Part shown: one piece after another, positions 420 through 21,905 of the stretch
Layout of the letters: each line of letters opens with the position of its first letter
Position numbering within the stretch: position 1 is the first letter of the stretch
The notes under the pieces: model-generated
What the model was told of the DNA's origin: nothing
Databases searched by the model: none
The model's input: only the letters and a program-made list of their open reading frames with translations
Assembly: GCF_005696695.1 (NCBI RefSeq)
Contig: NZ_CP040006.1
Span: 2,328,134 to 2,360,133, forward strand
Reading direction: 5' to 3'
Source of the DNA: Schaalia odontolytica
GTDB taxonomy: Bacteria > Actinomycetota > Actinomycetes > Actinomycetales > Actinomycetaceae
DNA: 32,000 nucleotides
Position numbers and translations under genes: made by a program

Positions 420-3400
420 GTGTGTCGTAGATTACCCGCTATTCTTGGTCGCATGACTGCTGCGCGCGACGACGACTTCATGGCTCTGCCCGGTATGGAA
501 GCGGATTCCACCGAGACCCACCACGGCCGGGAACGTTTGTCAGATGAAGCCACCCCCACCTCCCCAAACGCCTCCTCGAAGTCAGCGCTCGATGCCCTGC
601 TGGATGAGTACCGTGCGCGCGCGAAGAGCGAGCGCGAGAAGGGCACGCTGTTTGAGGAGCTGACGCGTCAGTTCCTGCTCCACGATGCGCGTTTCGCGCA
701 CCAGTTCAAGGAAATCTACCTGTGGAGCGAGTGGCCCGAGCGCCGCACAGGCGACACGGGTATTGACCTGGTGGCGATCCCGGTCGACGAAAACGCAGGC
801 CCGGTCGCCATCCAGTGCAAGTTCTACGCGCTGGGTCATCGCATTCAGAAGGCGGACATTGACTCGTTCCTGTCGGCGTCGGGCAAGGAGCCGTTCGGTC
901 GCCGCATCGTCGTGGACACGTCGGGCGCGCCGTGGGGCAAGAACGCGCAGGACGCGATCGAGGGCCAGCAGATCCCGGTTTCCCGCATCACACTGGCAGA
1001 TCTGCGCGATTCGGACATTGATTGGCGCACGTATTCGCTGGGTTCGACGCAGGCGCCGAAGACCCGCGAGCGCAAGGTTCCGCGCGACCATCAGGTGCGT
1101 GCGCGCAGCGCGGTGATATCGGGCTTCGAGGAGCACGACCGCGGCACGATGGTCATGGCGTGCGGCACGGGTAAGACGTTCACGGCGCTCACGATCGCGC
1201 GCGAGTTCGTGGAGAAGGAGGGCGGCACCGCCCGGATCCTGTTCGCTGTCCCCTCGCTCGCGCTTCTCAAGCAGACGCTGGACGATTGGGCGGCCGAGGC
1301 CGATGGCGCGTTCACGGCGTGGGCGGTGTGTTCGGATACGAAGGTGTCCTCGTCGGCGCGTAACGACACGGCCGAGGAGTCGGCGGTGGACCTGCCGATC
1401 CCGGCGACGACAGACGGCCAGCGCCTCGCGGACTCCCTGAATGCGAATAACACGACGGAGGGACTGCAGGTCGTCTTCGCGACGTACCAGTCGATCGAGG
1501 TCATTCACCGCGCGCAGGAGATCGCGGGCGATGAGTGGCGCGATTTCGACCTGATCATCTGCGACGAGGCCCACCGCACGACGGGTGCGACGCTGACGGG
1601 CGAGGACGAGAGCGCGTTCACGAAGATCCACAGCGACGAGTTCATCCGCCGTGCGAAGACCCTCTACATGACGGCAACGCCGCGTATTTTCGCGGAGAAC
1701 GCGAAGAATAGGGCGTCGGAGAAGGACGCGATCCTGACTTCGATGGACGACCAGGAGACCTACGGTCCGGTGTTCTTCCGCCTGGGCTTCGGCCAGGCGG
1801 TGAAGGAGAACCTGCTGACGGACTACAAGGTCATCATCCTGACGGTCAGTGAGGAGGAGGTGTCGCAGCACTATCAGGCGATCGCCGAGATGGGCGGCGA
1901 GCTGAACCTGGACACGGCCGCGAAGCTGACGGGCTGCTGGAACGCGCTGGCTAAGCGCAAGAATCGCGGCTCGGACGTGGACTACGGCGAGGATCGTGCG
2001 CCGATGCGCCGCGCCGTGGCCTTCTGCAAGGACATCAAGGCCTCGAAGGCGGTGGCCACACAGTTCCCGGACCTGGTAAACGGCCCCTTTGGCCTGAGCG
2101 ACCTCAGCAACGATGACGCGTCGGATAACCTGCAGGTCGAGTGCCGCCACGTGGACGGCACGATGAACGCCGCGGTGCGTGCACGCGAAATGGATTGGCT
2201 GACCGAGGGCGCGGGCACGGACGAGGTCCCGGTGTGCCGCATCCTGACGAACGCGCGCTGCCTGAGCGAGGGCGTGGACGTGCCCACGCTGGACGCGGTG
2301 CTCTTCCTGTCGCCGCGCAAGTCGCAGGTGGATGTCATCCAGGCGGTGGGCCGCGTGATGCGCCGCGCGGAGGGCAAGGATTTCGGTTACATCATCTTGC
2401 CCGTGGCCGTGCCGGTGGGCATGGCGCCGGAGCGCGCGCTGGACGACAACAAGCGCTTCCAGGTCGTATGGCAGGTCCTCAAGGCCCTGCGCGCCCACGA
2501 CGAGCGCCTGGACGCGGCGATCAACTCGATGGAGCTCAACGGCCAGGGGCCGGAGAACATCATCGTCGAGCAGGTCTCCCTCGAGAAGGCGAAGAAGCAG
2601 GACGATCCGCTCGGGGGCAGTGCACCCGATGGGGACGAGGCCGGGGCCGGGTCCTCGGGTTCCGGAGCGGACGGCGTGGCCCAGGGCATCCAGGGTCAGC
2701 TGACGCTTCTTCCCTCGGATTGGAAGGAGTCGGTGTTCGGCCGGATCGTGAAGAAGGTGGGCTCGTCCCTGTACTGGGAGGACTGGTCCAAGGACATCGC
2801 GACCGTGGCGGACCGCTACATTCACCTCATCGATCGCCTGCTGGAGGATCCGGAGCGCCAGGACGCGTTCCAGGAGTTCGTGAACGCGCTGCGCGCAACC
2901 CTAAACCCAGCCGTGGACAACGAGTCGGCGGTGGAGATGCTGGCCCAGCACATTCTCACCGCGCCGCTGTTTGACGCGATGTTCCCGGATCATTCGTTCT
3001 CGAAGCAGAACCCGGTGAGCCGCGCGATGAACACGATCGTGGAGATGCTGGCGTCGCACTCGATGTTCGAAAACGAGCGCCGCGAGCTGGATTCCTTCTA
3101 TCGGGCGATGGTCGAGCGCATCGAGGCCGTGCACACCCTGGCGGGCAAGCAGGAGATCATGCGCACGCTCTACGACCGCTTCTTCTCCCAGGCCTTCCCA
3201 CGCATGAGCGAGCGCCTGGGCATCGTCTTCACGCCCGTCGAGGTCGTCGACTTCATTATCCGCAGCGCGGATGATGCAATGCGCACGGCGTTTGGCCAGA
3301 GTCTGGGGGATCCGGGCGTGGCTATCATCGAGCCTTTCGCCGGAACCGGCACCTTCGTGGCGCGCCTGTTGCAACTGGGCGTCATCCCGCCCGAGGCCCT

Positions 3401-5579
3401 GGAACGCAAGTATAAGAACGAGATCTTCGCGAACGAGTTCGTGCTGCTCTCCTACTACATCGCGTCAATCAACATCGAGCAGGTCTACCACCAGGTGCGC
3501 GCCGAACAGGGCGTGGACGAGGGCTACGTCGAGTTCCCCGGCATGACCCTGACGGACACCTTCCAGCTCCACGAGGGCGACGGCACGATCACCGAGGACT
3601 TCGAGGGCCTGGCCGCCAACAACGAGCGCGCGAAGGCGGAGAAGGATTCCGCAATCACGGTGATCGTGATGAACCCGCCGTACTCAGCGGGCCAAAAGGA
3701 AGAGAACGACAAGAACAAGAATCTCAAGTACCCCCGTCTGGACGAGAGAATCGAAGAAACGTACGTCCGCCAATCTGGAGCTGGCCTGATGACCAAGCTC
3801 TACGATTCCTACTTCCGCGCCCTGCGCTGGGCGTCGGACCGAATCGGGGCGCGGGGCGTCATCGCCTTCGTCTCCAACAGCTCCTTCCTCGATGCGAACA
3901 GCACAGACGGTGTGCGTCTTACACTGCAGGATGAGTTCTCCCAAATCTTCGTCTACGACATGAAGGGGAACGCACGAACATCCGGTGAGCGCCGGCGACG
4001 CGAAGGCGGAAACGTTTTCGAGTCTGGTTCTCGCACGGGTGTAGCCATCACCATCCTAGTGAAGGACCCCACCCACTCCAGCACCGCCGAGATCTTCTAC
4101 GCGGAGGCGGAGGACTACGCGACGCGGCAGGAGAAGCTCGACCAGATCACCAACTACGGATCCATTGAGGGGATCAGCGGAACAGATGCATTCCGCACCA
4201 TCACGCCGAACGAGCACGGCGACTGGATCAGTACACGCGACGAGCATTTTGCTACCTTCCAAGAAATCGGCAATCAAGCCCTCAAGGGAAAGATGGCTTC
4301 TCCAGGCATTTTCCAACAATTCTCACTTGGATTGGGAACAAACCGTGATGCATGGTGCTACAACTTCTCAGGTACGGCTGTGTCCTCGAACATGCACCGC
4401 ATGATCGACAATTACAATTCACATGTTAAAGCCAAACGTACGAGCGCAAACGCAACCACGGATGCCACGCAAATTAATTGGAATGATCGACTGCTTCGAG
4501 ACCTCAACAGCCAGAAGATTCACCATTACGAGCACGCAGCGCTACGCGTGAGCATGTATCGTCCCTTCTGTATACAACATGTATATTTCTCAAGGGAAAT
4601 GAACAATAGAACATATCAGCTTCCGCAACTCTTCCCTACAATTGCACACAGAAATCTATCCTTCGTAGTCTCCAGAGGGGATATTACAAAAATTGGTCCG
4701 CTAATGACCGACTTTCTCCCCGACCTGCATCTTGTGGGAGATGCGCAGACATTCCCCCTCTACACCTGGGAGCCCCTCTCCCCCACCTCCGGTGGCGAGC
4801 CGGACCTGTTCGCGGACCTGGCAACCTCCTCGGAGAGCCAGGCGGATGGGGTGGCCACGGCCTCGTCACTTGATTTCTCGCGGCCGATCGGCGACCAGAT
4901 CCCGGTGATCCTGGACGGCTATCGCCGCGTCGATAACGTCACGGACGCGACGCTAGCCTCGTACCGGGAGCACTACGGGGATGCGGGGATCACGAAGGAG
5001 GACATTTTCTTCTACGTGTACGCGCTGCTGCATCACCCGGAGTATCGGGAGCGCTACGAGGATGATTTGAAGAAGATGCTGCCGCATATTCCTCGTGCGG
5101 CGGGTTTCCACACGTATGCGAGTGTGGGCCGCGAGCTGGCGGACCTGCACGTGAACTACGAGCGGGTGGAGCCGTATCCGTCGGTGCAGGAGGAGGCGAG
5201 CTTGCACGCGCCTGCCGACCCGTGGGAGCGCTACCGGATCGGTGAGCGCAAGATGCGTTTCCCGAAGCTGGGGCGCCGCGATAAGGACTTTACGCGCTTG
5301 GAGTACAACGACTACGTGACCCTGACGGGCATTCCCGCAGAGGCGCAGGGCTATTCAATTTCGGGCCGCAGCCCGCTCGAGTGGATCATCGACCGCTACC
5401 ACGTCAAGACGGACAAGGCGTCGGGCATCGTCAACGACCCGAACGACTTCCTGCGCGAGCAGGGCCGCCCCGACGCGGTCGTAGACCTGATCAAGCGCCT
5501 GGTGACCGTCTCGATGCGAACCCAGGAGCTCCTGGCGACGCTGCCCGCGTTGGAGATTCCGGAAGGGGCAGACCAATGA
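420..5579 (+). CDS. Type ISP restriction-modification enzyme (single polypeptide: Mrr-like PD-(D/E)xK nuclease, SF2 DEAH translocase, N6-adenine methyltransferase, target-recognition domain)
   Basis: 1719-aa ORF. The nuclease core is 'GIDLVAIP...AIQCKFY'. Helicase motifs are I 'ACGTGKTF', II 'ICDEAHRTTG', III 'MTATP' and VI 'QAVGRVMRR'. Methyltransferase motifs are I 'IEPFAGTGTF' and IV 'NPPY' (nt 3671-3682), followed by a long C-terminal TRD. This order matches LlaGI/LlaBIII-type enzymes. Start is GTG at 420 or, more likely, ATG at 453 (MTAARDD...). Confidence 0.85.
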   Translation: MCRRLPAILGRMTAARDDDFMALPGMEADSTETHHGRERLSDEATPTSPNASSKSALDALLDEYRARAKSEREKGTLFEELTRQFLLHDARFAHQFKEIYLWSEWPERRTGDTGIDLVAIPVDENAGPVAIQCKFYALGHRIQKADIDSFLSASGKEPFGRRIVVDTSGAPWGKNAQDAIEGQQIPVSRITLADLRDSDIDWRTYSLGSTQAPKTRERKVPRDHQVRARSAVISGFEEHDRGTMVMACGTGKTFTALTIAREFVEKEGGTARILFAVPSLALLKQTLDDWAAEADGAFTAWAVCSDTKVSSSARNDTAEESAVDLPIPATTDGQRLADSLNANNTTEGLQVVFATYQSIEVIHRAQEIAGDEWRDFDLIICDEAHRTTGATLTGEDESAFTKIHSDEFIRRAKTLYMTATPRIFAENAKNRASEKDAILTSMDDQETYGPVFFRLGFGQAVKENLLTDYKVIILTVSEEEVSQHYQAIAEMGGELNLDTAAKLTGCWNALAKRKNRGSDVDYGEDRAPMRRAVAFCKDIKASKAVATQFPDLVNGPFGLSDLSNDDASDNLQVECRHVDGTMNAAVRAREMDWLTEGAGTDEVPVCRILTNARCLSEGVDVPTLDAVLFLSPRKSQVDVIQAVGRVMRRAEGKDFGYIILPVAVPVGMAPERALDDNKRFQVVWQVLKALRAHDERLDAAINSMELNGQGPENIIVEQVSLEKAKKQDDPLGGSAPDGDEAGAGSSGSGADGVAQGIQGQLTLLPSDWKESVFGRIVKKVGSSLYWEDWSKDIATVADRYIHLIDRLLEDPERQDAFQEFVNALRATLNPAVDNESAVEMLAQHILTAPLFDAMFPDHSFSKQNPVSRAMNTIVEMLASHSMFENERRELDSFYRAMVERIEAVHTLAGKQEIMRTLYDRFFSQAFPRMSERLGIVFTPVEVVDFIIRSADDAMRTAFGQSLGDPGVAIIEPFAGTGTFVARLLQLGVIPPEALERKYKNEIFANEFVLLSYYIASINIEQVYHQVRAEQGVDEGYVEFPGMTLTDTFQLHEGDGTITEDFEGLAANNERAKAEKDSAITVIVMNPPYSAGQKEENDKNKNLKYPRLDERIEETYVRQSGAGLMTKLYDSYFRALRWASDRIGARGVIAFVSNSSFLDANSTDGVRLTLQDEFSQIFVYDMKGNARTSGERRRREGGNVFESGSRTGVAITILVKDPTHSSTAEIFYAEAEDYATRQEKLDQITNYGSIEGISGTDAFRTITPNEHGDWISTRDEHFATFQEIGNQALKGKMASPGIFQQFSLGLGTNRDAWCYNFSGTAVSSNMHRMIDNYNSHVKAKRTSANATTDATQINWNDRLLRDLNSQKIHHYEHAALRVSMYRPFCIQHVYFSREMNNRTYQLPQLFPTIAHRNLSFVVSRGDITKIGPLMTDFLPDLHLVGDAQTFPLYTWEPLSPTSGGEPDLFADLATSSESQADGVATASSLDFSRPIGDQIPVILDGYRRVDNVTDATLASYREHYGDAGITKEDIFFYVYALLHHPEYRERYEDDLKKMLPHIPRAAGFHTYASVGRELADLHVNYERVEPYPSVQEEASLHAPADPWERYRIGERKMRFPKLGRRDKDFTRLEYNDYVTLTGIPAEAQGYSISGRSPLEWIIDRYHVKTDKASGIVNDPNDFLREQGRPDAVVDLIKRLVTVSMRTQELLATLPALEIPEGADQ

Positions 5580-6185
5580 AAGCACAAGGTAACCAGCCTA
5601 TTGCACTATTCAAACGGCACCCGCGCACCGATCCAAAATCCCTCGTGATGCATAACCAAGTATACCGCCTGGGCGAGTTATCAGAAGCGCATTATGAATC
5701 CACAGTAGTCATTTCCAGCAAGTTCGACGGACAAGCTACATCCGACACTTTCCTTCTACCTTATCTATTCCTAATGCGCCACGCCTTCGAATTATCACTC
5801 AAAGATGGAATAATAGTTCTCAAAAAAACTTAGAATAGAGCACTTTGTTGCAGATCCGGAAGTAGCATTCAACTACATGTCACCAATTGACTACGTTACT
5901 GATATCGGACACAATTTAATGAAGCTCTTTAACGAATTCAAACGAGAATATAATTCATTTGACTTCATGGATAGGTTCCCCAAAGGAGTTGAAACTGCAT
6001 TAATTCTTCTCCACCAAGCAGATAAATAGAGCACCGAATTTAGATACGGCACGGAGCCGCAGGATGAACCGTCACATATCGACTCAGCATCACTCTGCGC
6101 AGAACTGAGTACACAATTCCAAAAACTATCGACTGTTATCGACTACGCTTGTGGCACCTGCTCATACCTTCCCATTGCTCGATAT
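5576..6185 (+). pseudogene. Low-GC hypothetical gene (about 205 codons if repaired), disrupted by an A7 frameshift, an in-frame TAG and an IS30 insertion at its 3' end
   Basis: ATG 5576-5578 overlaps the Type ISP stop TGA 5577-5579 (ATGA). Frame 1 stops at TAG 5831-5833. The reading frame continues in the +1 frame from the A7 run at 5822-5828, and deleting one A fuses the two frames. An in-frame TAG lies at 6027-6029, and the frame stays open to the IS30 boundary at 6186. The composition is visibly AT-rich compared with the flanks. Confidence 0.6.
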
Positions 6186-7251
6186 CAGGGCAGTGTCAAT
6201 GTGTGATAGCAATGAGCTGGTTGAACCCTTTGAGGGTGCGTCTGGGGCAGTTGTTCAGTTCATTGACGATGGCTTCGAGGTAGGGTTGGTGGGTGGTGAT
6301 GGGGTTCGTTTGGGCAGGTAGTGACGGAAGAGTCGGTTGGTGTTTTCGTTAGTCCCGTTTCTCAAAGACTGTGGGGGTCAGCGAAGAACACGTCTACGCC
6401 AATGCCTAGGATGAGGCGCTGGTGGTGGGTCATTTCTCGTCCCCTTGGCCCCCGTGTCAGTTGCCTCGCACCGTTGGGGAGTGGGGTGAATACGGCGGGT
6501 GAACGCGTCACAGACTTGGTCGACCCTCCGCCCGAGAGGCAGAACCACCATAAATCAGGTAGCGGATGGCTGCCTCGACCAGGATTGTCTGCGCAATAGC
6601 CCCATCTCGGCTGATACGTGAGGTCACCTTCGAGGTGCCCATGATTCTTCGGTAGGCAATGTTGGCGCACCTCAATCGATTAATCACGTTTCAATCATCG
6701 GTGGCGAAAAATCACCCGCTCGGTCTATCTTGCAGATCCACCACGCGGAGGGCAAGCAAATGCTGTGATCGATCAACGTCTACTTGGGTTGGGCGTAGAT
6801 CCAGGTTCGATCGCCTCACGGCTAATCGCAACCGTGGGCGTCGGGAGAATTGTCCGTAGGAACCACTGTGCCACACACCTCAGCACTCAGACGTCGATCT
6901 GCCCTGGCGGGGCGTGCGCCCCTGCGACAAATCAGAGATAACACATCGGCGAAGAGCCATATCACGGTCCCGAAGCCACATCTTGGGCGATCCTCGCGGC
7001 TAGTGCCACGCTCAGGGCTTTCTCGGCCTGATACACGCCGTCAGGACCTGCATGGCGGGCGACCTAGCGGCATTCCACCGAGGGGATAGGCCCAACCCAA
7101 CGAGCGATACGAACCCTAGGAGAGGCCCACCTCCAAGCCCGCCATGATCACCACACGATTCCAAACACTGCACATCAGACGACAGTTCACAACCACCCAC
7201 CCAACAGCATTAGTACCACACAAATTGCTCACAGCCTATGACACTGCCCTG
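6186..7251 (-). mobile_element. IS30-family insertion sequence, ends intact, transposase degenerate (pseudogene)
   Basis: A 13-bp perfect terminal inverted repeat is present: 'cagggcagtgtca' at 6186-6198 and its reverse complement at 7239-7251, with further imperfect inner matches (tgtga..gcaat). Minus-strand fragments carry IS30 DDE hallmarks: 'GHLEGDL', 'FFADPHS', 'NGTNENTNRLFRHYLPKRT' and 'AIVNELNNCPRRTLKGF'. These fragments are spread over at least three frames with stops. Confidence 0.75.
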
Positions 7252-7272
7252 TGTTGAGGCTATCCTTGCAGT

Positions 7273-8133
7273 ATGGCTTTTTCTGCAACAGTACTCCGGG
7301 TAGCGATAGCGTCTCCGTCTGACGTCCCCGAATCGCGTGATGCAGTTGAAAGAGCACTTCACTCGTGGAATGAGGCCAACTCAGCCACGAAGAATGTCAT
7401 GCTACTGCCGTGGAGATGGGAAACATCGTCAGTTCCCAAGCTCGGCAAGCATCCCCAAGTATTTGTCAATGAGCAGGGGGTTGATAAGGCAGACATAGTC
7501 ATTGCCCTATTCGGTAGCAGGCTCGGAACTCCGACGCCTGAAGCAATCTCAGGAACCGTAGAAGAGATCGAACGATCCGTAGAACACGGGAAACACGTAC
7601 ATCTCTATTTTTCTGAAGCCCCTCATCCAAATGACGTGGACGTTGAGCAGCTGAGCGCTCTTCGTTCTTTTCGTGAAGAGATCAGCGAAAGAGGACTCCT
7701 TGCGACATTCGCAAACCCGAGTCAGCTAGAACATAAGGTCTGGCAAGCAATCGAGCTAGACGTCTCAGAACTTGTTGACGGCGGGCAAGTTTTGACTCCA
7801 GCAAAAAAACGCGGAGCACAGTTTCGCGTCCAGTCGAAGCAAAGCCAGCAGCTCAAAGAAACAGACTCGCGAGGCAGAGCGAAATACACAACGAAGCACT
7901 GGCTAGAGGTCACGAACATCGGAGATTCCGCTGCCGAAAACGTAACATTTAGAGCAGAAGCCACTTCAGGTCCAATTTTTCTTGTCACGCCAGAACAGCC
8001 AATTCGACTCGATCCTAATGTGACCTGGAAGCTCAATTTCGACCTAACACTGGGGACTGGTGGCAGGCTCCAGCTGATCATTAGCTGGGATGAAAACGAA
8101 GATCACAAGACAGAACGCTTCGACTTTCAGTAG
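7273..8133 (+). CDS. DUF4062/TIR-like (nucleoside 2-deoxyribosyltransferase-like fold) N-terminal domain fused to a C-terminal Ig/CARDB-like beta-sandwich; function unknown, candidate defence effector
   Basis: 286-aa ORF. The N-terminal pattern is 'LRVAIASPSD..ESRDAVERAL', then 'ADIVIALFGSRLG', then 'SGTVEEIERSVEHGKHVHLYF'. This is the beta-alpha-beta arrangement with a conserved acidic 'TxEE' seen in DUF4062/TIR-like domains. The C-terminus 'HWLEVTNIGDSAAENVTFRAE...VTWKLNFDLT...RLQLIISWDE' looks like a beta-sandwich. GC is intermediate, lower than core genes. Confidence 0.55.
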   Translation: MAFSATVLRVAIASPSDVPESRDAVERALHSWNEANSATKNVMLLPWRWETSSVPKLGKHPQVFVNEQGVDKADIVIALFGSRLGTPTPEAISGTVEEIERSVEHGKHVHLYFSEAPHPNDVDVEQLSALRSFREEISERGLLATFANPSQLEHKVWQAIELDVSELVDGGQVLTPAKKRGAQFRVQSKQSQQLKETDSRGRAKYTTKHWLEVTNIGDSAAENVTFRAEATSGPIFLVTPEQPIRLDPNVTWKLNFDLTLGTGGRLQLIISWDENEDHKTERFDFQ

Positions 8134-8158: not shown

Positions 8159-8485
8159 TCAGCACTCAACCAGCGGCTTCCGATTTGAACCACCCAGGCA
8201 GCCAGCGAACACGAGCCACCAACTTTGTAGCAAGCCTGGCAGGATAGCTTCGAGAAGGTAGTCGGTGGCATGGACATCGACCATCTCAGCCATGAGTCTT
8301 GTAGCGTGCTCAGGAGCGAGTACGACAACGAGACCAGAGCCGTCTCCTCCGCCATAAGAAATGAACTCTTGGTAGCAGTTACCGAGAATGTCAGAGTTGA
8401 TCGTTGAGCGGCCGGTGACGACGTGGTACACGTCGTCGGTGAGGATGTTGGTCATCCACTTCAGGGGCAACTGAGGCGTCTTCAT
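8159..8485 (-). CDS. Hypothetical protein, probably a 5'-truncated gene remnant abutting the ISL3 end
   Basis: 108-aa ORF whose ATG (8485-8483) and first 3-4 codons lie inside the ISL3 terminal repeat (8475-8500). There is an alternative internal ATG at 8455. The first half has coding-like G/C-ending codons ('NILTDDVYHVVTGRSTINSD...ISYGGGDGSGLVVVLAPEHA'). I recognise no family. Confidence 0.35.
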   Translation of the reverse strand: MKTPQLPLKWMTNILTDDVYHVVTGRSTINSDILGNCYQEFISYGGGDGSGLVVVLAPEHATRLMAEMVDVHATDYLLEAILPGLLQSWWLVFAGCLGGSNRKPLVEC

Positions 8486-9687
8486 AGTTGGGTGTGGGTG
8501 ACAGGTGTTGGTCGGGGGTTACAGATAGAGGTTGAGTTTCTTGATGATGAGCGGGCTTCAATCCCCGCCTTCTCCAAGGACCCAAGTGGTGTCTTACCCT
8601 GCCTGATGTTGTTCTGCTTCGCTTGACCGGTGCAAGCGGTTTGATCTGCTCGTTGGGATGGAGGGTTTCCACCTCACAGGTGCAGCGCACTGCCAAGGGA
8701 TCATGGTGCAGGATACTGAGTCGTGCAACCAGGTGGTGGGATGTCCTGAGTGTGGGGTAATTGCACAGGGCCATAAACGAGTGTAGGTGGAGATGATTGA
8801 CGCGCCGTGGGCCGGGACGCGGACGCGGGTTAGGCGGGACAATACGGCGCTGGTGCTGCCGCGAAAACGCCTGTCAGACGGTGACGTTCGTGGAGCACAA
8901 TATGCGCGTGTGTGCCCTCAAGACGCGTGTAGATGTGCGGGCAATTCGGTGAGCGATCCGTCAGTTGCGCTTTTTGGGAGCCACCATCGCATATCTGGCC
9001 CGCCAGCTAAGCACGGGCGTAACACCGTGTGGTCCTAAATCAAATCCCTCTTCCAAGCTGCGGCCGATCATCCCGACCGTTTCGCAGGCGTGCGGGCTCT
9101 AGGGGTGGATGAACACGTGTAGCACCACCAGAACAGACGCCAACGCGGCCCCATAGGCTCACCGGTATCAAAACTCACCCGAGGAGAGACCACACCGCAG
9201 CCCACTTGCTGGACCTGGTCCCAGGCAGGTCTGGAACCATGTACAAGAACTGGCTGGCCAAGCGCGGCGAGCAGTTTCGCTCCGGCATCCAGCTCATGAC
9301 ACTGGACCCCTTCCACGGGCAGCACACACGCCATCGATTACCAACTCTAAGACGCCACCAGCGCCTCCAATGCCTTCCATGCCGATGAGGCGCACATCAG
9401 TGTCCAAGTCGCCTACTGTTACGATCAGCAAGGCCGAGGTTTACCAGACTGCCCCGTCCCCGAGCTTGCTCGCCAAAGGGTAAACCTTGGGGCGACGAAA
9501 AAAGGCGTTCTCGGCCTACTTCGACACCGACCGAGCAAACAACGGACCCACGGAAGCCACCAATAGAATCCTAGAACTAGGCATACGAAACGCCAGAGGC
9601 TACCGCAACCCGACCAACTACCAACTCCGAATGCCCCTCATCGCAAGAGGCTTAGACGCCTCCACCCACACCCAACTATGAAGAGCC
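8475..9687 (+). mobile_element. ISL3-family insertion sequence, ends intact, transposase frameshifted and internally deleted (pseudogene)
   Basis: A 22-bp perfect terminal inverted repeat 'tcttcatagttgggtgtgggtg' lies at 8479-8500, with its reverse complement at 9663-9684. Both are preceded by ISL3-like 'ggc'. Plus-strand fragments in three frames match ISL3 transposase: 'VVGCPECGVIAQGH', 'MIDAPWAGTRTRV', 'LLDLVPGRSGTMYKNWLAKRGEQFRSGIQLMTLDPFHG' and 'NNGPTEATNRILELGIRNARGYRNPTNYQLRMPLIA'. Confidence 0.8.
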
Positions 9688-20618: not shown

Positions 20619-21905
20619 ATGCAAGCTGTACGTCCGGACAACTACCGCCCTCGAGCAATCGACCGGCGTATCGACCAACTGCTGCGATCCTTCGGCGCTG
20701 TTGAAATCGCCGGGCCCAAATGGTGTGGAAAGACCTGGACCTCACTTGCACATGCTGGCAGCGCTGACTTGCTCACTGACCCATCGACGCTATTAGCCGC
20801 TCAGTCCTCCCCCGAACTTGTCCTCTCTGGCGAGCGCCCACACCTCATTGACGAGTGGCAGGAGGTGCCTCAGATCTGGGATATGGTTCGTTCTCGTATC
20901 GATTCGTCCGCGGGTGAACGAGGACAGTTCATCCTCACAGGTTCATCCGCACCACACGATATTGAAACAATCAGGCACAGCGGCGCAGGGCGCATTGCTC
21001 GCGTTCACATGCGGCCAATGACCTCATACGAGGCCGGAGCGACTCCCGGAGGCGTAAGCCTCCGCGATCTTTTTGACGGCAAGGGAATCACTTCGCAACG
21101 ATGCGAAAGCTCTATCGAAAGCGTTGCGCGTTGGTGTTGCCGAGGAGGATGGCCGTCGATTCTTGATCTCGATGACGAAGATGCGTTGGAAACTCCGGCA
21201 CAGTACCTACGCAACCTCATTGAGGTAAACATGCCTCAACTGCGCCGATCTCCAGACACTACACGGTCACTGTTACGCGCTCTCAGTATGAATCTTGCGC
21301 AAGCTCCGACAATGAGCACCCTGGCAAAGGATATGGGCAGCGAAGGTGAAGAAAAGTCGCGTCACACGATTAGGGCCTACCTCGACGACCTCCGCGCAAT
21401 GTACCTACTCGAAGATGTGCCCGGATGGGAACCCGCAGCTCGAGGAAAGAAACGAGTTCGTATCAAGCCCAAGCGCTACTTCGTCGATCCCTCGCTACCT
21501 GCAGCCATGCTCGGTCTATCCCCCAGCAAGCTGCTGCGCGATACTCAGACTCTCGGCGGATTGTTTGAAACTCTCGTCTGCCGTGATCTCCTCACGTTCA
21601 CCGACACACTTCCTGGTGTCGGAAACTCCATCGCCTACTACCGTGACGACAAAGGTCTCGAGGTTGACTTCATCATCGAACTCGCTGACGGCCGCTGGGG
21701 CGCGTTCGAGGTCAAACTATCGTCGATGGGTATTACCGAGCGCGCCGTGGAACGCCTTCGGAGGTTTCATGCGCTCATGACCGGTAACCCTATGGCCCGG
21801 ACTTCCGAGCCCGCTTTTCTTGGTTTCATCGTGGGTCATGGAGAGTTCGCGTACCAACGCGACGACGGTCTGTTTGTACTCCCTTATGCGTGTATCGAGC
21901 CCTAA
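20619..21905 (+). CDS. AAA+ ATPase with C-terminal DUF4143 domain (AAA_14/DUF4143 family)
   Basis: 428 aa. Walker A-like 'GPKWCGKTW', Walker B-like 'HLIDEWQ', and the DUF4143-like C-terminal half ('GGLFETLVCRDLLTF...YYRDDKGLEVDFIIE'). It has a strong SD. Confidence 0.8.
   Translation: MQAVRPDNYRPRAIDRRIDQLLRSFGAVEIAGPKWCGKTWTSLAHAGSADLLTDPSTLLAAQSSPELVLSGERPHLIDEWQEVPQIWDMVRSRIDSSAGERGQFILTGSSAPHDIETIRHSGAGRIARVHMRPMTSYEAGATPGGVSLRDLFDGKGITSQRCESSIESVARWCCRGGWPSILDLDDEDALETPAQYLRNLIEVNMPQLRRSPDTTRSLLRALSMNLAQAPTMSTLAKDMGSEGEEKSRHTIRAYLDDLRAMYLLEDVPGWEPAARGKKRVRIKPKRYFVDPSLPAAMLGLSPSKLLRDTQTLGGLFETLVCRDLLTFTDTLPGVGNSIAYYRDDKGLEVDFIIELADGRWGAFEVKLSSMGITERAVERLRRFHALMTGNPMARTSEPAFLGFIVGHGEFAYQRDDGLFVLPYACIEP

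Follow-up and report, generated by a model that had tools for sequence, protein, structure and literature searches.

The window analysed here, a 32,000-nucleotide (nt) stretch of the Schaalia odontolytica genome (RefSeq assembly GCF_005696695.1, contig NZ_CP040006.1, positions 2,328,134 to 2,360,133 of the forward strand), carries an intact Type ISP restriction-modification (R-M) gene whose end overlaps the start of a small decayed gene. The latter (5576-6206) is almost certainly a real pseudogene of a conserved, ISP-coupled gene, which is referred to below as the partner gene and whose intact copies encode a protein of 209 amino acids (aa).

Organisation of the locus

The Type ISP gene (420..5579, forward strand) comprises 1719 codons counted from the first GTG, with no internal stops and the stop codon TGA at 5577-5579. 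Pfam searches placed an Mrr nuclease, an SF2 helicase, a coupler, a gamma-N6-methyltransferase (MTase) and a target-recognition domain (TRD) in the expected order on a single polypeptide (Type_ISP_C, E 1.9e-96; ISP_coupler, E 7e-41; Mrr_cat_2, E 6.6e-36; ResIII, E 3.3e-24), with ResIII/DEAD and N6-MTase domains recognised as well. The GTGKT, DEAH and NPPY motifs are present in the open reading frame (ORF), and the PADLOC model REase_MTase_IIG covers the protein over its full length.

The partner gene begins inside the stop codon of the Type ISP gene, its ATG (5576-5578, forward strand) and the TGA at 5577-5579 being merged as ATGA (5576-5579), and a Shine-Dalgarno-like (SD) sequence, GGAAGGGG, lies on the same strand at 5561..5568, within the last ISP codons and 7 nt before the ATG. 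An initial annotation, made from the letters of the window, had pointed out this overlap together with a switch from GC-rich to AT-rich DNA at the ISP stop codon; the former was recovered by direct reading and the latter by base composition (GC content 0.625 in the ISP gene, 0.431 at 5576-6185). Two parts of the operon are both low in GC and highly variable, namely the partner gene and the target-recognition segment of the ISP gene. In the TRD part (4200-4800) the GC content falls to about 0.46-0.50, and positions 4373-4746 have no nucleotide similarity to loci L001-L005, the ISP genes being 89-94% identical elsewhere, which suggests that this segment is a swapped specificity cassette.

Inactivation of the partner gene

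The pseudogene of the 209-aa protein spans 5576..6206 (forward strand), from the ATG at 5576 to the TGA at 6204-6206. Read without repair, the frame from 5576 is open for 85 codons, runs through an A7 run (5822-5828) and ends at a TAG (5831-5833). Comparison with intact alleles places the first lesion (5822..5833, forward strand) in this run, where one extra base leads to the premature TAG after codon 85. When one A is deleted, as the initial annotation had proposed, the frame is open to the TGA at 6204-6206 except for the second lesion, an amber TAG (6027..6029, forward strand) in place of Ser151, which is TCG in all intact alleles examined. That annotation had also read the in-frame TAG and the open frame beyond it correctly, and its single gene of about 205 codons held up as one ORF after repair, but with a length of 209 codons. 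At the first lesion the window reads AAAAAAACTTAG, compared with AAAAAAG-TCAG and AAAGAAC-TCAA in intact alleles; the nearest intact allele (AAAAAAG-TCAG) differs there by two further substitutions, and comparison with other alleles (AAAGAACTC) is nonetheless consistent with the gain of a single A by an ancestral AAAAAACTT.

Over its entire length the repaired translation shares 97% identity with the intact protein P0001 (E 5e-132), and 12 alignment columns (10 substitutions, 1 single-base insertion) differ between the window and the eight intact P0001 loci. Changes derived in the window lineage, polarised by comparison with more distant alleles, were Y39H, A43T, A91V, K133R, N143I, S151* (TCG to TAG) and +1A, that is, five replacements and one nonsense change against one synonymous change. 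Y39H and A43T fall on residues that are invariant across a 20-sequence clade alignment. The pseudogene diverges from L001 by about 1.9%, on a par with the adjoining dead insertion sequence (IS) relic (about 2.2%) and three times as much as the next gene (about 0.6%). As far as such small counts allow, this pattern appears to fit relaxed constraint after inactivation, in agreement with the relaxed selection considered earlier; the counts are too small for selection for loss and drift to be told apart.

The exact 85-aa truncated product is recorded in five contigs from independent samples (L021-L025; ERZ3584914, SRR18033983, SRR18033984, SRR15235652, SRR31716228), all of which are 100% identical to window positions 5576-6206 (631 nt), A7 and TAG included; elsewhere along 8.6 kb, L021 has 69 positions that do not match the window. 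Because five independent assemblies carry the identical A7 and TAG, assembly error is excluded, and the lesions are genuine and have become fixed in a lineage of oral Actinomyces. The notion that they are sequencing or assembly errors in an ordinary intact gene, which the initial annotation expected resequencing to settle, can appeal to homopolymer runs as classic error sites and to a nearest intact allele that is 98% identical to the window gene; given contigs from independent samples and assemblers and five private amino-acid replacements in the window allele, it is effectively refuted and its probability is negligible.

A second alternative, that the A-tract is a phase-variation switch turning the partner gene reversibly off and on, is suggested by the position of the frameshift within a homopolymer and by the P0209 allele (...LKKSE*, 3 contigs), a protein entry with an apparent A6-to-A5 frameshift in the same tract. 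However, the tract is short for efficient slippage, it is A7 in all six copies of the window allele and A6 in all 16 other L001-type loci inspected, and an A7-to-A6 reversion would not restore function in the presence of the TAG and of the replacements at invariant residues. When metagenomes were scanned by sequence pattern for variants of the tract, only three more loci came up, all A6, with no population data on length. The variation in tract length that the initial annotation had proposed to look for was thus not seen, and we regard phase variation as very improbable. Programmed frameshifting or amber read-through was likewise judged implausible in view of two separate lesions and replacements at invariant residues, the intact alleles using a plain ORF.

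With intact orthologues, reproducible lesions and relaxed constraint all found, the gene is a two-lesion pseudogene, and there is nothing out of the ordinary in the decay of the window copy within its defence island.

The IS30-family end

A degenerate element, probably of the IS30 family (6186..7251, minus strand), follows, and from its end the partner ORF takes its six final codons (QGSVNV) and its stop. Its inverted repeats (6186-6213 and 7224-7251) are 28 nt long and 79% complementary, and tblastn with the IS30-type transposase of L040 (HTH_38 + rve) gave a match at 6303-6481 on the minus strand, in two frames (E 7e-8). What can be detected of the transposase is a frameshifted 60-residue remnant of the catalytic region; no intact transposase was found within 6186-7251. 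The IS30 end at 6186 that the initial annotation had recognised is therefore a real feature, but of the 'triple hit' in which it was counted only the frameshift and the TAG are lesions peculiar to the window allele. The intact P0001, P0201 and P0202 proteins share the IS-derived end QGSVNV*, with P0001 and its relatives ending in ...ARYQGSVNV*, the relic is present at all intact loci L001-L008 and L041-L045, and alleles without the IS (L015, L018) diverge from about 6178 on. Alleles differ in how long the tail displaced by the IS end is and in its sequence, and no part of the AlphaFold model is less confident than this tail. Since the IS end is common to intact alleles under purifying selection and removes a variable tail only, it is not a private lesion of the window copy; judged from these alignments, it is an older, tolerated event that replaced the variable C-terminal tail alone.

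Other alleles carry related 3' ends. At the protein level, P0011, P0210 and P0217 continue into this IS-end peptide (RRCQWVVAMSSLNASVGVR) from residues ~195, ~183 and ~172 onward, respectively, which would reflect either repeated insertion by an active IS30-family element or adjacent deletions at the 3' end of the gene. The P0015 allele (L011-L014; 60% protein identity) has the same IS junction as window positions 6150-6330, and its 3' end is near-identical to the window from about ...TGCTCATACCTTCCCATT on. The partner gene appears to be mosaic, with recombination breakpoints inside it.

Intact orthologues and their link to the Type ISP gene

The repaired protein has 29 close homologues (E down to 5e-132), and pairwise dN/dS among intact alleles is 0.14-0.31, indicating purifying selection; the absence of any intact homologue or coding signal, which the initial annotation had named as grounds for giving up the gene, was thus not borne out. 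The intact orthologues beside Type ISP genes that it had proposed to search for do exist. The best homologue, P0001 (209 aa), occurs at eight loci (L001-L008), where its gene overlaps by 4 nt the end of a Type ISP gene coding for 1703-1704 aa. The same 4-nt overlap was found for P0010 and P0009 (80-86% identical), for P0020 and P0015 (55-60% identical), and in Actinomyces metagenome-assembled genomes (MAGs) among the GTDB genomes. Intact 209-aa orthologues at 97% identity share this arrangement in many contigs of oral metagenomes and in Actinomyces MAGs. A profile scan of genome contigs with the clade alignment returned four loci, and a member in NCBI, WP_454928563.1, is recorded as 'hypothetical protein [Actinomyces sp.]'.

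An NTGA overlap is kept in every related locus that has upstream sequence, one allele using GTGA in place of ATGA, and an equivalent SD sequence (GGAAGGAG/GGAAGGGG) is kept in the divergent alleles L009, L011, L015 and L018. That both the overlap and the embedded SD sequence persist where the proteins have diverged by up to 45% argues for co-expression, and the 4-nt overlap with a ribosome-binding site in the last ISP codons suggests that both proteins are probably made from one transcript by coupled translation. The co-translated partnership proposed at the outset is therefore upheld even among alleles that are 55-60% identical.

Automated annotation systematically under-calls the overlapping partner gene. 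P0204, P0206 and P0187 (143 / 155 aa) were considered as N-terminally disrupted alleles and rejected, their starts being gene-caller choices at Met67; the full 209-codon ORF is intact at 6803-7432 of L041-L045, where it overlaps the ISP stop.

Loss of the partner takes more than one form. In the window lineage an intact ISP gene stands beside a dead partner, from which it follows that the partner is not needed for the ISP enzyme to be tolerated. In the L037-L040 lineage (33 contigs) the ISP gene is cut to its last ~145 residues by an IS30-type element plus an EcoO109I/Dcm system, and the partner gene is also frameshifted, after about codon 32. Upstream in these loci (about 1700-7320) lie an intact or decaying IS30-type transposase (HTH_38 + rve), an EcoO109I-like restriction endonuclease and a Dcm methylase. 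The protein entry P0018 has an apparent frameshift near codon 133, and together with P0209, P0217, P0210 and P0011 it suggests further independent disruptions.

A conserved all-alpha protein family

A search with the clade profile among 1.84 billion cluster representatives retrieved 243 representatives at E<=1e-3, 61 of them at E<=1e-10, most being stand-alone proteins of 190-240 aa. Across 132 sequences P62, R68 and E72 are invariant, and K76, H112, D149, R156 and Y157 are more than 90% conserved. The three motifs quoted in the initial annotation (LMRHAFELSLK, GHNLMKLFNEF and FRYGTE) are present in the repaired product and correspond exactly to these sites. The mostly helical fold expected there also agrees with the AlphaFold model, which is all-alpha with a predicted local distance difference test score (pLDDT) of 93.5 and a predicted template modelling score (pTM) of 0.90, its helices spanning residues 32-47, 54-90, 103-110, 114-126, 136-148 and 170-195. 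The proposed course of in-silico repair followed by AlphaFold and Foldseek thus yielded a confident model, but no significant PDB match: Foldseek against the PDB (two models) and BFVD gave nothing at E<0.19. The intact family is a conserved, unannotated protein, all-alpha in the model, which with its invariant and near-invariant residues is probably an enzyme-like module.

A rival view is that the intact partner is no effector but modulates the ISP enzyme, be it as a regulator, a safety factor or an antitoxin-like protein, for instance by curbing self-restriction or by helping methylation. Such a role would suit the tight translational coupling, from which production in matched amounts can be expected, and a weak match of one member to the immunity protein Imm71 (E 8.5e-4, below threshold). 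Yet the combination of an intact ISP gene and a dead partner persists in at least six assemblies, so the ISP enzyme is not lethal alone; LlaGI and LlaBIII are described, in the available text of two reports (PMC3553950, PMC4666363), as single-polypeptide enzymes working alone; no DNA-binding helix-turn-helix was detected in a Pfam scan of the repaired protein; and the residues kept invariant (R/E/K/H/D/R/Y) have the look of a catalytic set. A modulator therefore seems improbable to us.

HEPN-like features

The initial annotation had noted a loose resemblance to HEPN/Abi-type proteins, and several weak hints agree with it. Six of the 55 family members scanned had sub-threshold Pfam PF05168 (HEPN) matches (best E 0.006; 12-17 bits against a cutoff of 22), and the three inspected individually (best 16.7 bits) bring residues ~100-175 onto model positions 45-101; one member matched Csm6-HEPN at E 0.07. 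In Foldseek the top PDB entry for a first, weaker model was a HEPN protein, and HEPN/MNT toxins recur in both searches. Four of the helices (32-47, 54-90, 136-148 and 170-195), with an insert at 94-126, could form a HEPN-like four-helix arrangement, with weak Foldseek HEPN matches (E 0.24-1.4, template modelling score (TM) <=0.5). The Ex3[KR] motif that lies in helix 2 of HEPN domains (Anantharaman et al. 2013, PMC3710099) is present as E72 (132/132) and K76 (130/132), both in helix 54-90. The non-canonical HEPNs AbiV and AF0298 are without the motif His, an alternative His being found in their helix 2-3 insert (PMC3710099); the family fits this description, because helix 54-90 contains E72-x3-K76, the insert (94-126) contains H112, and R156 follows helix 136-148. 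Taken together, these HEPN-like features are suggestive only.

Surrounding defence island

Downstream of the IS relic, a 286-aa gene (7273..8133, forward strand) has a DUF4062 / PDC-S60-like N-terminus (PADLOC PDC-S60, E 1.1e-24 over the N-terminal 180 residues; Pfam DUF4062, E 1.3e-4, below the curated cutoff), which marks the locus as a defence island. It is kept in all related loci and is the gene with about 0.6% divergence from L001 mentioned above. A 108-aa ORF (8162..8485, minus strand) is a type IIG restriction-methyltransferase fragment (PADLOC, E 2.7e-14) and thus another relic, and a 428-aa AAA_14 + DUF4143 ATPase gene lies farther away (20619..21905, forward strand; Pfam E 6e-34 and 5e-12). 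At around 8790 (window ~8790-9379) divergence from L001 jumps from <1% to ~30%, which on this comparison marks an abrupt boundary, either of recombination or of the island. Genes on either side of the ISP-partner pair differ between strains (upstream of the ISP gene in L002-L004 and L041-L045; also L015 and L043) and include an SLFN-g3 helicase, an AAA_15/AAA_21 ATPase pair, ThsB_TIR and SLFN_AlbA_2/HATPase_c_4; such variable flanks are typical of a defence-island hotspot.

Proposed explanation and its weight

We propose that the ancestor was a 209-aa all-alpha protein encoded directly downstream of the Type ISP gene in oral Actinomyces. In the window lineage the partner was inactivated by a +1 insertion in the A-run and by the change of Ser151 to amber, the ISP gene staying intact, and replacement changes have since built up at otherwise invariant partner residues. 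The helix order and motifs of the partner resemble the non-canonical AbiV/AF0298 HEPN arrangement, and its most likely role would be that of an RNA-targeting second-line effector (abortive or dormancy type) that is expressed together with the restriction enzyme. Such a role has been proposed for other HEPN genes beside R-M systems, and at least 16 HEPN clades have an R-M link (Anantharaman et al. 2013, PMC3710099). As the partner was lost without loss of the ISP gene, neither the enzyme nor cell viability depends on it, and it is probably costly. For this explanation as a whole, in which the pseudogene claim and the HEPN-like effector claim are blended, we lean narrowly towards acceptance; that the intact protein is a HEPN-like RNA-targeting effector is, by analogy, possible and on balance doubtful.

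Several observations weigh against this explanation. None of Pfam, NCBIfam, PADLOC and PHROGs gave a match at threshold for the repaired protein and 55 family members, no curated HEPN profile matching the 55 significantly; a profile search of PDB sequences returned no HEPN entry and three irrelevant matches only (E>0.5), and the high-confidence model found no PDB structure better than E 0.26 with Foldseek. The HEPN top match of the first model did not strengthen with the much better second one, which ranks HEPN toxins only 32-39, with TM about 0.3-0.46. The Rx4-6H motif is absent across the 132 sequences, R156 (130/132) having no conserved His 5-7 residues downstream, and a [KR]107-x4-H112 variant, which only about half of the family at large possesses, is missing in the ISP-linked clade. 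As Rx4-6H is absent and no significance threshold was reached, we do not file the family as HEPN; the loose resemblance noted at first thus remains as a set of hints, but membership is not established. In addition, L028 (a MAG labelled Xylanimonas, CAKMQM010000104.1) seems to pair a frameshifted ISP gene with an intact partner, which argues against a strict dependence of the partner on the ISP enzyme, and the distant family members P0031, P0034, P0129 and L029 are not beside Type ISP or recognised defence genes. The ISP partnership may therefore be specific to the Actinomyces clade, or a matter of operon hitch-hiking.

In L028 the ISP gene (1835-7004) consists of three overlapping ORFs in different frames, split at about 3790 and 5316, which is also where its identity to the window changes (97%, 94% and 83%); either the ISP gene has truly decayed into a pseudogene or the MAG assembly is chimeric. 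PADLOC gave no match among the neighbours of the distant members (P0031, P0034, P0035, P0129, L029), the contexts being short or uninformative and the contig of P0035 too short to judge its neighbourhood.

Hitch-hiking would make the partner an autonomous module, be it a defence or mobile-element gene or a novel non-HEPN fold, that travels in the ISP operon and whose loss is neutral decay. The stand-alone position of the distant members inspected, away from ISP genes, the lack of a significant structural neighbour, the other relics in the island (the dead IS30 element and the type IIG fragment at 8162-8485) and a low GC content (0.43), which suggests a horizontally acquired cassette, all speak in its favour. 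However, the 4-nt overlap and embedded SD are kept across alleles at 55-60% identity, and in L037-L040 a destroyed ISP gene goes with a frameshifted partner; overlap conservation and joint decay thus indicate a functional ISP-partner link, and we take an autonomous module to be unlikely.

If the partner is instead the co-expressed effector that we propose, the family could be an undescribed one, its members being either highly divergent RNases akin to HEPN or proteins of a new all-alpha fold, and could make up, together with the Type ISP enzymes of Actinomyces, a defence unit of two layers; we rate this as unlikely but worth stating. In such a unit translation would be coupled and the effector would be checked by, or triggered through, the ISP enzyme, and the repeated independent inactivation (in the window, in the P0183 lineage, and by IS30 insertions at several 3'-end sites) would express the cost of autoimmunity. 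Counter-selection against a toxic partner, as the initial annotation suggested, is possible, and there are further alleles that have been disrupted independently. The usual view of Type ISP enzymes is that of self-sufficient single chains; a conserved coupled partner suggests an unrecognised accessory layer in the oral Actinomyces clade, one perhaps similar to the RNase toxins found with other R-M systems. No paper that combines Type ISP with HEPN came up in a literature search, and a divergent HEPN-like accessory of Type ISP systems, if the family is one, is not known to have been described in the literature searched. With 243 representatives, a confident model, invariant polar residues and no annotation, the family is a tractable target for defence discovery. 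The window copy, being dead, records only the loss in its host genome and shows that the ISP gene can outlast its partner.

Comparison with known systems

As regards the locus, decayed defence-island genes and unitary pseudogenes beside IS elements offer a close parallel, sharing a frameshift and a nonsense codon, excess replacements, and adjacent IS and R-M relics, and nothing about the window copy is unusual in this respect. The upstream gene has the five-domain single-chain architecture of the Type ISP enzymes LlaGI and LlaBIII of Lactococcus plasmids; in the available text on these they are single polypeptides with no accessory subunit mentioned, whereas the Actinomyces genes have an overlapping downstream partner.

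For the partner itself, one comparison is with R-M-linked HEPN genes such as PrrC with EcoprrI, and RloC. Like them it is a small to medium helical protein in an R-M operon, with Ex3[KR] on a long helix, a conserved His and Arg, a place in a defence island and patchy presence and loss. It differs in that the family is without significant model or structure matches and without the canonical Rx4-6H, and, compared with PrrC and RloC, without an ABC/ATPase or anticodon-nuclease domain; these genes go with a Type I complex, whereas the partner here goes with a single-polypeptide Type ISP enzyme, and its RNase or guard role is putative. AbiV/AF0298-type HEPN proteins (HEPN-T, PF05168 clade) are the other comparison. 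The family differs from them in that no member scanned matched any AbiV-named Pfam model at E<=1, that Foldseek TM is <=0.5, and that no MNT or SaV-like partner lies near the family gene. What it has in common with them is a length of about 200 aa, an all-alpha fold, a missing Rx4-6H His, a strongly conserved alternative His (H112 here) in the helix 2-3 insert and a conserved Arg (R156 here) ending helix 3, and the three of six PF05168 matches that were inspected individually cover the same region.

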